From Chloroflexota bacterium (GTDB lineage: Bacteria; Chloroflexota; UBA11872): a DNA stretch of 64,000 nucleotides. The DNA is taken from contig JAPOYR010000002.1 of NCBI GenBank assembly GCA_026706485.1, forward strand, positions 321,251 to 385,250, written 5' to 3'. The position numbers and the translations under genes are program-made. How positions within the stretch are numbered: position 1 is the first letter of the stretch; each line of letters starts with the position of its first letter. Below, in pieces: positions 14,351 through 17,300 of the stretch. The notes below the pieces were generated by a model. That model was not told the DNA's origin. It saw nothing but the letters and a program-made list of their open reading frames with translations, and made no database searches.

Positions 14351-17300
14351 CTAGGCCCAGTGATGCCGGCGCTGGAAGGGATAGCTTGGCAGAGGAACCC
14401 GGCGCCGCGTCTCGCCCGCGAAGAGCCCGGGAAAGTCGATCGCGAGGCCGACGTCGTAGGCGGCAGCGACCGCTTCGACGAAGCGGCCATCAGACTCGGA
14501 GGCCGAGCCATCGATGCCCGGCTGCCGCAGGCTGCTGATCACGACCGGCGCCGGAGCGGTGTCGGCATCGGGCCAGGCGGGATGGACCTGCGGCCCCAGC
14601 ACCGCATGGGGACCAATCTCCACGACCACGTCCACGCCCAGGGTTGCCAGCGTCTCGACGCAGCGCCCGAAGGCCACCGGCACGCGCGCCTGGCGGTGCC
14701 AGTAGGCCGCATCGAGCGCGTTGTCCGATTCGAGCACCCCACCGGTCACGCTGCTGATCAAGGGTGACGAGGGACCGGCGACCGCAACATCCTCAAGCGC
14801 GGCCTCCAGGCTGCCTTCGAGGGCCAATCCGGGTCCCGGCAGCGCCGACATGAGCGCGCCGCGCGCCACGGCAAAACGCAGGCCGTCGTCCAGGCTGAAG
14901 ACCCCCGCCGCCTGGGCCGCCGCCATCTCTCCAATCCCGTGCCCCACCACCACGCCGGGCCGAACGCCCAGGCTCTCCCACAGGGCGGTGAGCGCGCACT
15001 CCAGGGCATAGATCGCCGGATGCGCCCATGTGGCGTCGTTCAAATCACCCGCGGAATCGCTCCGCCCGAACATCGCGTCGAGCAGCGACGCGCCGCGCTC
15101 GTCGCTGACGACCGCCTCGCAGCGATCCAGTACGGCCCGTACCACCGGCTCGGTCTCGTAGAGGGTCTGGCCCATCCCGGTCCAATGGCTGCCCTGGCCG
15201 GTGTAGGCAAAGGCCACCCGCCGCGCCGTCTCCGGCTGCCGCTCGAACGGCGATTGGGCGATGGCCCGCAACCGGTCGCCCAGCGAATCGGCGTCGTGGA
15301 ACACCACGCCCGCGCGGTAGTCCAAGTGACTGCGTCCCACACTCGCCGTCCACGCCATGTCCGCGAGGTCGGAGCTTGCGACGGCGCCGTTGCTCGCGGC
15401 AGGTCCGCCTTGCTCTCCCAGCCATGCCACGTAACGTTCCGCCAGGTCTCGCAGCGCCTGGTCGGACCGTGCCGATAGCGGCAGCAACCGCGTCGGGCGT
15501 TCGCCTATCTCCTCAGCCGACAGCGGCACGTCGGCCAGCGCCTCGGGCAAAGACGCGGGTATCGAGCGCGCGGCGCCGGCCGGAACGCGGACCTCGTCGG
15601 ACGTAACCGACGAGCCTTGCATTGAGTCGTAGCCCGCCAGGACCACGTTGGCGTTGGCGCCCGACATGCCAAACGCGCTGACAGATGCCAGGGGCGGCCG
15701 GTCGGGAGTCTGCGGCCAGGGGGTGTCGCTCGCCGCCACGCGGACGGGCAGCCGGTCCCACTCGATCTGGGTGCTGGGGGAATTGAAGTGCAGCTGCCGG
15801 GGAATCACGCCCTGCTGCAGGGCCAGCACGGTCTTGATCAAACTGGCGATCCCCGCCGCCCATTCGGTATGACCGATGTTGGCCTTGACGGAGCCGAGCA
15901 CCAGGGGGCGGTCCGGATCGCGGCCGCGGCCATAGACCGCCGCCGCGGCGTGCACCTCGATCGGGTCGCCCAATGCCGAGCCGGCGCCGTGCGTTTCCAG
16001 ATAGTCCACGTCCGCGGGCTCGACGCCGGCCCGCGAGAGGGCGTCCTGAAGCAGCCGCTCCTGGGCCGGACCGTTCGGCACGGTGAGACCCGCGCTTGCC
16101 CCGTTCTGGTTGACCGCCGCGCCGCGAATGACGCCCCAAATCCGGTCGCCGGCCGCTTCGGCGTCCGGCAGGCGCTTGAGCACCACCATGCCGCAACCGT
16201 CGCTGCGCACGAAGCCGTCCGCGTCGGCATCGAAGGTGCGGGAGCGTCCGCTGGTGGACAACATGCCGAGATCGTTCAGGAATCTTGTGATCCCGCGGGA
16301 CAGGGGAATGCTCACGCCGCCGACCAGCGCCATATCCACCTCGCCGCGTTGGAGCCCGGCTACTGCCTGATGCACCGCCACCAGCGACGAGGCGCAGACG
16401 GCGTCGAGCGGAATCGCCGGGCCTTCCAGCCCGAACACGAAGGCGAGGCGTCCGACGGCCATGCTCCCGGCGGTGCCGACAAAGCTGTCGGGCTGGCCAC
16501 TGGCCGCGATGACGTCGCGATATTCGTTGCCGCCCAGCCCAACGTAGACCCCCGTGCTGCTGCCACGCAGTCCCTCCGGATCGATGCCCGCATCCTCGAG
16601 CGCGTGCCACGTCGTCTCCAGCAGCAGCCGCTGGCGCGGATCCATGCCGCGCGCCTCGATCGGCGAGATGCGGAAGAAGCGGGAGTCGAATTGCTCAATG
16701 CCCTCGATGAACGCGCCGCGGCGAAACACGGGGTCTTCAGCCGCCGGGTCGCCAAACAACCCGGTCCAGGAACCGTCCGCGTCGCGCGCCTCGGTCACGG
16801 GGTCAACACCCGCCTCCAGCTGCCGCCAGAAGGCGAGCGGGTCGTCCGCGCCGGGGAAGCGGCAGGCCATGCCGACGATGGCGATGCCGTCATCCTCTCG
16901 CTGCGACGGGGGGGCGAGCGCCGGGGCCTCCGGCTCCGGCGACGGCGCGGCGCCGCCGACCTGGCCGAGCTCGCCGACCAGATGACGCGCGAGGCTGGCA
17001 ACGTCCGGATAGTCGAACACCAGCGTATTCGAGGCCACGTATTCGTCCGCAAACGCCCGGTTCAGCCGGTTTCGCAGCTCCACGGCCATCAGCGAGTCCA
17101 TGCCCAAGTCGAAGAAGCCAACCGTCGGCGACGGCGTGCTGGTCAACCGCAGCACCGCCTGCAACTCCCGCTGCAGGAAGGACACCAGCACCTGCTCGGG
17201 ATCGGCCGCCGGCGCGGTTCGCAGTTGGGTCAACAGGTCGTCCGACGAGGCCGCGGCGTCGGCCTCGTCATCGGCCGTCGAGGTGAGCATGTCTTCCAGC

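Follow-up and report, generated by a model that had tools for sequence, protein, structure and literature searches.

A 64,000-nucleotide stretch of a Chloroflexota metagenome-assembled genome (MAG; assembly GCA_026706485.1, contig JAPOYR010000002.1, positions 321,251 to 385,250), referred to here as the window, contains a large type I polyketide synthase (PKS) gene that encodes two acyltransferase (AT) domains. Our analysis indicates that the second of these domains, AT2, is almost certainly catalytically dead, judging from its sequence and its modeled structure. We also find that its truncation is an ancient trait that is common to a whole family of synthases distributed across many phyla. 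The gene is probably a SupA-type polyketide/fatty-acid synthase in which the C-terminal AT-like domain is a vestigial acyltransferase, which we term AT0. The original prediction, which was made from the sequence of the window, correctly recognized a deletion in AT2 but treated it as a lesion particular to this gene; the condition is instead conserved throughout the family.

The PKS gene occupies positions 14351..24622 (10.3 kb) of the minus strand, as do all features of this gene described below, and its translation is an intact frame of 3,423 amino acids. Pfam matches occur in the order ketosynthase (KS), AT, dehydratase (DH), methyltransferase (MT), enoylreductase (ER), ketoreductase (KR) and acyl carrier protein (ACP), after which KS and AT are each matched a second time, giving the architecture KS1-AT1-DH-MT-ER-KR-ACP-KS2-AT0. 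The first acyltransferase, AT1 (aa 570-870; 22013..22915), is intact as defined by its motifs and an AlphaFold model, with Q575, GHS661VGE, R686 and RAFH767 all in place. Within AT1 a small ferredoxin-like subdomain together with the catalytic His (aa 697-767; 22322..22534) forms a segment that, by alignment and predicted secondary structure, has no counterpart in AT2. Alignment of AT1 with AT2 by BLASTP yields two collinear blocks of 69% and 56% identity that are separated by ~74 residues found only in AT1. This agrees well with the in-frame deletion of ~75 residues within an intact reading frame that had been proposed originally. The gap between the corresponding blocks of aligned DNA is 311 nt in module 1 versus 89 nt in module 2. 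Thus, the missing segment is absent from the DNA and not simply frameshifted, and with only 89 nt available we rejected the existence of an out-of-frame remnant.

A structural description of what has been lost was obtained from AlphaFold models of AT1 and AT0 that were built on family alignments and that are of similar confidence (pLDDT 89.2 for AT1; pLDDT 88.7 and pTM 0.90 for AT0). In the AT1 model, helix 196-211 is followed by an E-H-E-E-H-E arrangement (aa 697-759) that constitutes the ferredoxin-like small subdomain, and then by His767 of the RAFH motif, which is the dyad His and corresponds to residue 287 of the model. In the AT0 model the equivalent helix is joined directly to the helix that succeeds the small subdomain in AT1. 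What remains of AT0 (aa 3136-3350; 14573..15217) is a core composed of only the large alpha/beta-hydrolase subdomain, the fold of which is present according to both AlphaFold and Foldseek. Foldseek places the AT0 model with KS-AT didomain and AT structures (CurL 4mz0, DEBS 2hg4 and ZmaA) with TMq values of 0.75-0.84 and a probability of 1.00, the top match being the CurL KS-AT didomain 4mz0 (TMq 0.82). These alignments extend over ~450 columns relative to a 384-residue query, that is, with ~70 extra columns, and only positions 2-122 of the FabD profile TIGR00128 align with AT0. In active acyltransferases the small subdomain contributes to the substrate pocket, and the catalytic His comes after it. 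The alignment and the structure prediction, both of which had been suggested as checks by the original prediction, therefore bear out its identification of the missing segment as the small ferredoxin-like subdomain with its xAFH His, and they show that the large subdomain is still predicted to fold.

The remaining element of the active site is also altered. The original prediction held that AT2 had kept its nucleophile elbow; however, the motif that is GHSVGE in AT1 (Ser661) is a degenerate GHGIGE in AT2 (14927..14944), with Gly3229 (nt 14936-14938) at the position of the nucleophilic Ser. The junction left by the deletion follows shortly thereafter (aa 3256-3265; 14828..14857), is succeeded by the sequence LALEGS, and leaves no xAFH His. 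Since Ser661 is replaced by Gly3229 and His767 has no counterpart, AT2 is without both members of the Ser-His dyad. When AT2 was searched for the features of an active acyltransferase, the nucleophilic Ser, the dyad His (xAFH or YASH) and the ferredoxin-like small subdomain were all found to be absent, in keeping with the earlier view that this domain is probably unable to transfer extender units. Arg3254 and the GQG motif are still found in the AT0 of the window.

These losses are not peculiar to the window, as is evident from an alignment of 38 full-length orthologues. The dyad His is present in AT1 of all 38 proteins and absent from AT0 in every one of them. The nucleophilic Ser, invariant in AT1 (38/38), is replaced in AT0 by Gly in 30 proteins, by Asp in four and by Asn in one (Gly, Asp or Asn in 35/38), with a single Ser and two gaps making up the remainder. 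The His of the GHS motif and the active-site Arg, each found in AT1 of 38/38 orthologues, are retained in AT0 of only 9/38 and 18/38, respectively, and the Gln of GQG falls from 37/38 in AT1 to 12/38 in AT0. The segment at the junction measures 0-30 residues in AT0 versus 88-114 in AT1. Across these 38 orthologues no former active-site position of AT0 is conserved family-wide, nor is there a conserved alternative nucleophile or His.

A measure of the constraint acting on AT0 is provided by the ratio of non-synonymous to synonymous substitution rates (dN/dS). For the close and reliable pair formed by the window and locus L086 (homologous loci are given L numbers), dN/dS is 0.29 for the AT0 core as compared with 0.12 for KS2, 0.12 for DH, 0.08 for ER, 0.07 for MT and 0.05 for KR, such that AT0 evolves at non-synonymous sites two to six times faster than the active domains. 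Among 71 more divergent pairs of orthologues AT0 also exhibits the highest median dN/dS of all domains (0.38), although only the ranking is usable since dS in these pairs is 0.7-1.0 and hence near saturation. In amino-acid identity, too, AT0 is conserved less than any other domain (37-64% across related loci). Thus, given the highest dN/dS and the lowest identity but a dN/dS that is below 1, constraint on AT0 is relaxed but not neutral (dN/dS ~0.3).

The truncated domain is widespread. Among the best 120 database homologues of the AT2 region, ~95 have 0-16 residues where intact acyltransferases have 82-83, and the Ser is absent from almost all of these (one exception), with motifs such as GHG, GQG, GDG, GAG and GQD in its place. 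These ~95 proteins end at or just past the sequence YPFQRRRHW; the remaining matches among the 120 are intact acyltransferases that resemble AT1. None of the protein database matches to the AT0 region exceeds ~670 aa, and the 3,423-aa PKS of the window is not among them. A scan for complete loci, using one genome per species, located ~48 species-representative genomes in which a single open reading frame of ~3,200-3,600 aa has the KS1-AT1-DH-MT-ER-KR-ACP-KS2-AT0 architecture and the same C-terminal end. These loci come from more than eight phyla, with representatives in the Latescibacterota, Dehalococcoidia and other Chloroflexota, Gamma- and Alphaproteobacteria, Gemmatimonadota, Acidobacteriota, Nitrospirales, Binatia and Acidimicrobiia. 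They include members of the MAG series APA_bin and SB06xx as well as Ca. Palauibacter irciniicola, among others. The APA_bin MAGs were derived from the sponge Aplysina aerophoba and the SB06xx MAGs from Ircinia ramosa (PMC11706023).

Reduction of the domain has proceeded further in four loci (L027, L029, L038 and L045), where the whole AT core is absent and KS2 and the KS-AT linker domain are followed directly by the post-AT linker. Each of these loci has a supD-like hydrolase gene and a supB- or supC-like gene nearby. The AT core persists in the nearest KS2 relatives of L029, L038 and L045, which suggests, from sequence identities and not from a tree, that the core was lost more than once. 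The family may thus preserve a graded series that begins with an intact cis-acting AT (AT1), passes through an AT from which the small subdomain and Ser are missing (most AT0s) and ends with excision of the core (L027, L029, L038 and L045). Such a series could offer a natural model for the origin of AT-less, trans-loaded modules from cis-AT ones, with AT0 representing a selected docking scaffold that steers the free ACP to AT1, an idea that we put forward tentatively and regard as rather doubtful.

The remainder of module 2 appears well equipped for catalysis. KS2 (aa 2575-3010; 15593..16900) has a complete Cys-His-His triad in the window (DAVCASS, ETHGAGS and NIGHTE). The catalytic Cys and the second His are kept in all of the orthologue motifs listed, and the first His (aa 2880 in the window) is His in 35/38 orthologues and Asn in 3/38 (EANxVGS). 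Next to KS2 comes the module 2 KS-AT linker domain (aa 3040-3135; 15218..15505), which matches Pfam CurL-like_PKS_C / RhiE-like_linker and comprises AlphaFold elements E6-12 to H72-84. The AT0 core is followed by a post-AT linker (14354..14572) that runs up to the stop codon. The protein terminates directly after the linker motif YPFQRRHHW, and this C-terminal end is common to the homologues.

Downstream of the PKS gene, also on the minus strand, are genes for three further proteins. These are a free-standing ACP of 81 aa that is supB-like (13871..14116; Pfam PP-binding, 3e-10), an Sfp/HetI-type 4'-phosphopantetheinyl transferase (PPTase) that is supC-like (13041..13802; Pfam ACPS and AASDHPPT_N, with an NCBIfam HetI-like match that falls below its cut-off) and a supD-like alpha/beta hydrolase that is the presumed release enzyme (12136..13044; Pfam Abhydrolase_6). 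For the supD-like hydrolase, structure and profile searches returned weak generic alpha/beta-hydrolase matches only and no close solved structure or family. A fourth gene, on the opposite strand (10368..12107), encodes a supE-like NCS2-family permease (Pfam Xan_ur_permease) that has a C-terminal extension and for which a protein database search gave a match of 100% identity in an NCBI Chloroflexi MAG. Genes for the ACP, PPTase, hydrolase and permease also occur near the PKS in related loci, where their arrangement varies. For example, the gene order of the window, including the position of the permease gene, recurs in L001, L003, L007, L022 and L025. The ACP gene adjoins the PKS in many related loci and is located elsewhere in the flank in others, and a supD-like hydrolase gene is near the PKS in most.

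Our proposed mechanism is that AT0 would be unable to form an acyl-enzyme and would persist solely as a folded spacer that holds the geometry of KS2, the linker domain and the post-AT linker. KS2 would remain competent for condensation and would extend the methyl-branched chain from module 1 one last time, without iteration, onto the free ACP, SupB. SupB would in turn be loaded with malonate in trans, most simply by AT1 and otherwise by FabD of the cell, after which the alpha/beta hydrolase would release the product. AT1 is a plausible loader because it is the only AT found in the 64-kb window. In outline this scheme coincides with what had been envisaged originally, with module 2 consisting of a KS and a structural AT remnant and the ACP, as a separate protein, having to be loaded in trans.

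Several considerations weigh against this interpretation. The inactivity of AT0 is a deduction from the residues and the subdomain that it lacks, and we infer both the loader of SupB and the action of KS2 as the last rather than the first step from gene content only. Membership in the Sup family fits the architecture, the neighboring genes, the hosts and literature descriptions, as distinct from a match to a reference SupA sequence. Finally, AT0 is under some purifying selection and still has Arg3254 and GQG in the window, so a non-catalytic binding role is possible.

A more specific form of this last objection is that AT0 is a repurposed non-catalytic module, kept because it serves, for example, as a surface for the docking or gatekeeping of SupB, SupD or the acyl chain. 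Its dN/dS of ~0.3, which is below 1, its confidently predicted fold, its retention in most lineages across many phyla and the two surviving motifs of the window are all in keeping with such a role. However, at least four lineages have dispensed with the AT core yet have Sup partner genes nearby, and the retained core of their nearest KS2 relatives suggests that such loss was repeated. AT0 is furthermore the most divergent domain of the protein, with none of its former active-site positions conserved family-wide. We therefore consider a dedicated new function for AT0 to be unlikely.

It could also be argued that the decay extends beyond AT0, with the whole of the second module (KS2-AT0 plus SupB) being a relic without a role and the product being made by module 1 alone. 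The clear degeneracy of AT0 is compatible with this scenario, as is the use in the literature of the term "monomodular" for Sup enzymes. Locus L001, in which only a truncated KS2-AT0 is found with the downstream genes, could be viewed in the same way. The condition of KS2 speaks against it, with its catalytic Cys and His kept in nearly all orthologues and a dN/dS of 0.12 that equals that of active domains. The attachment Ser of SupB is also kept (in at least 80% of 38 homologues), and a dedicated PPTase and hydrolase are present in many loci across phyla. A decaying second module is consequently improbable.

Continued activity of AT2 as a transferase that employs non-canonical residues seems very improbable. 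The observations that can be cited in its favor are that gammaproteobacterial locus L006 has the motif GHSLGE and that cyanobacterial locus L079 also retains the Ser. However, the N-terminal part of AT0 in L006 is so similar to AT1 of the same protein that its Ser is better attributed to gene conversion than to selection, and its His and small subdomain are missing. In addition, the Ser is Gly in the window and the family conserves no alternative nucleophile or His.

An artefact of assembly or sequencing, such as a repeat collapse, or a recent strain-specific lesion can be set aside almost entirely: two KS-AT repeats do lie within one gene of a MAG and were originally feared to be near-identical, but they share only 65-74% DNA identity with a longest exact run of 22 nt, the same junction is present in a PKS of the same length from L086 (GCA_026707285.1), a separate MAG with ~91-92% nucleotide identity to the window, and equivalent junctions occur in the ~48 species and ~95 metagenomic proteins described above. 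A collapse between the KS-AT repeats would moreover fuse the modules and not excise an internal piece. L083, an ENA scaffold that matches the window at 100% identity over 21.7 kb, was taken to have the same source and hence was not counted as independent evidence.

Assignment of a vestigial AT0 to a SupA-type enzyme draws on a comparison with sup clusters, a group of type I PKS clusters that is dominant in sponge metagenomes (PMC3908369, PMC4245539). The Sup cluster comprises supA-supE (Fieseler et al. 2007, AEM 73:2144, as cited in PMC3908369, PMC4245539 and PMC9426513), and its proposed product in the literature is mid-chain methyl-branched fatty acids. SupE, as encoded on a fosmid of an Aplysina aerophoba symbiont, is listed as a permease (PMC3908369), and SUP-like clusters have been found in MAGs of Chloroflexota, Spirochaetota, Proteobacteria and Acidobacteriota (PMC9426513). 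The window locus likewise has one full fatty acid synthase (FAS)-like reducing module, the C-methyltransferase of which is in line with methyl-branched fatty acids as the proposed product, as well as partner genes that include an adjacent permease. Both systems are found in MAGs of sponge symbionts that belong to the Chloroflexota, Proteobacteria, Acidobacteriota and other groups (PMC9426513 for Sup), the homologues of the window locus being spread over sponge-associated bacteria from several phyla. Several of these homologous loci are from MAGs of Aplysina aerophoba, which is the sponge source of the sup fosmid pAPKS18. When compared by description no difference between the two systems was found, although the literature speaks of a "monomodular" enzyme and a second KS-AT is not described there. 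In the literature searched, which covers Sup in general terms and does not include Fieseler 2007 or Siegl 2011, there is no statement on a second AT of SupA, and no protein named Sup is found among the database matches to AT0 or the permease. The roles of SupB, SupC and SupD as ACP, PPTase and hydrolase are ones that we have presumed here. In its original description SupA is said to carry a non-functional AT after its second KS, with genes for the ACP, PPTase and hydrolase coming next.

Module 2 can also be compared with other megasynthases. Trans-AT PKSs with a vestigial AT similarly have a KS, a KS-AT linker domain and a post-AT-type linker without a working AT, and their carrier is loaded in trans. 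Indeed, a KS plus linker with no AT core is exactly the layout seen in L027, L029, L038 and L045. In contrast, the window retains a folded AT large subdomain of ~215 aa and has no discrete trans-AT gene in the locus, with the PKS being otherwise cis-AT and FAS-like. It thus differs from a trans-AT module, defined by a KS and linker only plus a discrete AT gene, in both respects, and the four core-less loci conform to the first half of this definition. With active malonyl-CoA:ACP transacylases, such as E. coli FabD and the PKS acyltransferases CurL (4mz0) and DEBS (2hg4), AT0 shares the large-subdomain fold and recognizable GQG, GHxxGE and Arg motifs; unlike them, it is without the nucleophilic Ser, the dyad His and the small subdomain. 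A different parallel is provided by the pseudo-methyltransferase and pseudo-ketoreductase of animal FAS, which, like AT0, are dead and truncated domain remnants kept within a megasynthase as structural elements. AT0 differs from these in fold and position, and in being dispensable in some lineages.

Cyanobacterial KS-AT0-ACP modules, exemplified by L079 (Tolypothrix brevis, 8534-11782) and L070 (Trichodesmium, 1-1809), contain an AT in which the small subdomain is likewise missing, with the same boundaries. These differ in being ~30% identical to AT0, in residing within multimodular assembly lines and in having a fused ACP. Small-subdomain excision may be a recurrent route of AT decay. The nucleophile motif reads GHSLGE in L079 and GQNVGE in L070.

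These results have several implications. Domain callers report two ATs and two modules for genes of this type when only AT1 would be expected to work, which is of relevance to annotation. Product prediction for this abundant and uncharacterized sponge-symbiont pathway should allow for one AT, or FabD, serving two carrier proteins. For engineering purposes the family offers naturally tested boundaries for deleting the AT small subdomain, or the whole AT core, without destroying the KS. A truncated AT2 is the normal state of a known and widespread family and is neither a new kind of system nor anything unusual for this genome. What the present analysis adds is the Ser-to-Gly correction, evidence of relaxed but real constraint, and a natural series of AT reduction.

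A number of additional observations were made on AT0 and its family. In the proteins of L006 (Gammaproteobacteria APA_bin_21) and L021 (Nitrospirales), the N-terminal half of AT0 shares 95% and 82% identity, respectively, with the AT1 of that protein, as compared with a family mean of 62%, a pattern that looks like intragenic AT1-to-AT0 gene conversion. L006, with its GHSLGE motif, is apparently the sole orthologue that has a Ser back at the GHS site, and its small subdomain and His are still absent. The L001 locus is found at 9962-15758 of a 2.27-Mb contig, where a truncated KS2-AT0 gene (640 aa) is accompanied by ACP, PPTase, hydrolase and permease genes and module 1 is absent; the genes upstream encode a phage-tail-like protein (PhageMin_Tail) and BNR-repeat proteins. 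Module 1 itself varies, with no MT match in L027 and no ER match in L053. Multimodular PKSs composed of repeated Sup-like modules, KS-AT-DH-MT-(ER)-KR-ACP, occur in L019, L051/L055, L054/L060, L061, L062, L065 and L077, the hosts of which are Bryobacterales, Binatia, Rhodobacter-like, Longimicrobiales and Vicinamibacteria MAGs.

Positions 12136-24622 of the window also exhibit a mosaic pattern of identity relative to L002 and L025. KS1, ER and KR are closest to Chloroflexota loci (84-91%), whereas KS2, AT0, ACP, PPTase and hydrolase have their closest counterparts in metagenomic contig L002 (80-94%), their identity to those same Chloroflexota loci being only 47-66%. This pattern suggests recombination within supA. 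In the surrounding region, the extension of the permease (aa ~437-579) continues for ~140 aa past the NCS2 domain with no Pfam match, and its homologues are equally long (~577-580 aa). Beside the permease gene (9299-10133, minus strand) are toxin-antitoxin-like genes for PIN-domain and DUF7662 proteins that overlap head to tail. Immediately upstream of the PKS gene is a phosphotriesterase-family gene (PF02126; 25106-26170, minus strand), beyond which the next three long minus-strand open reading frames (26336-30581) have no Pfam match.

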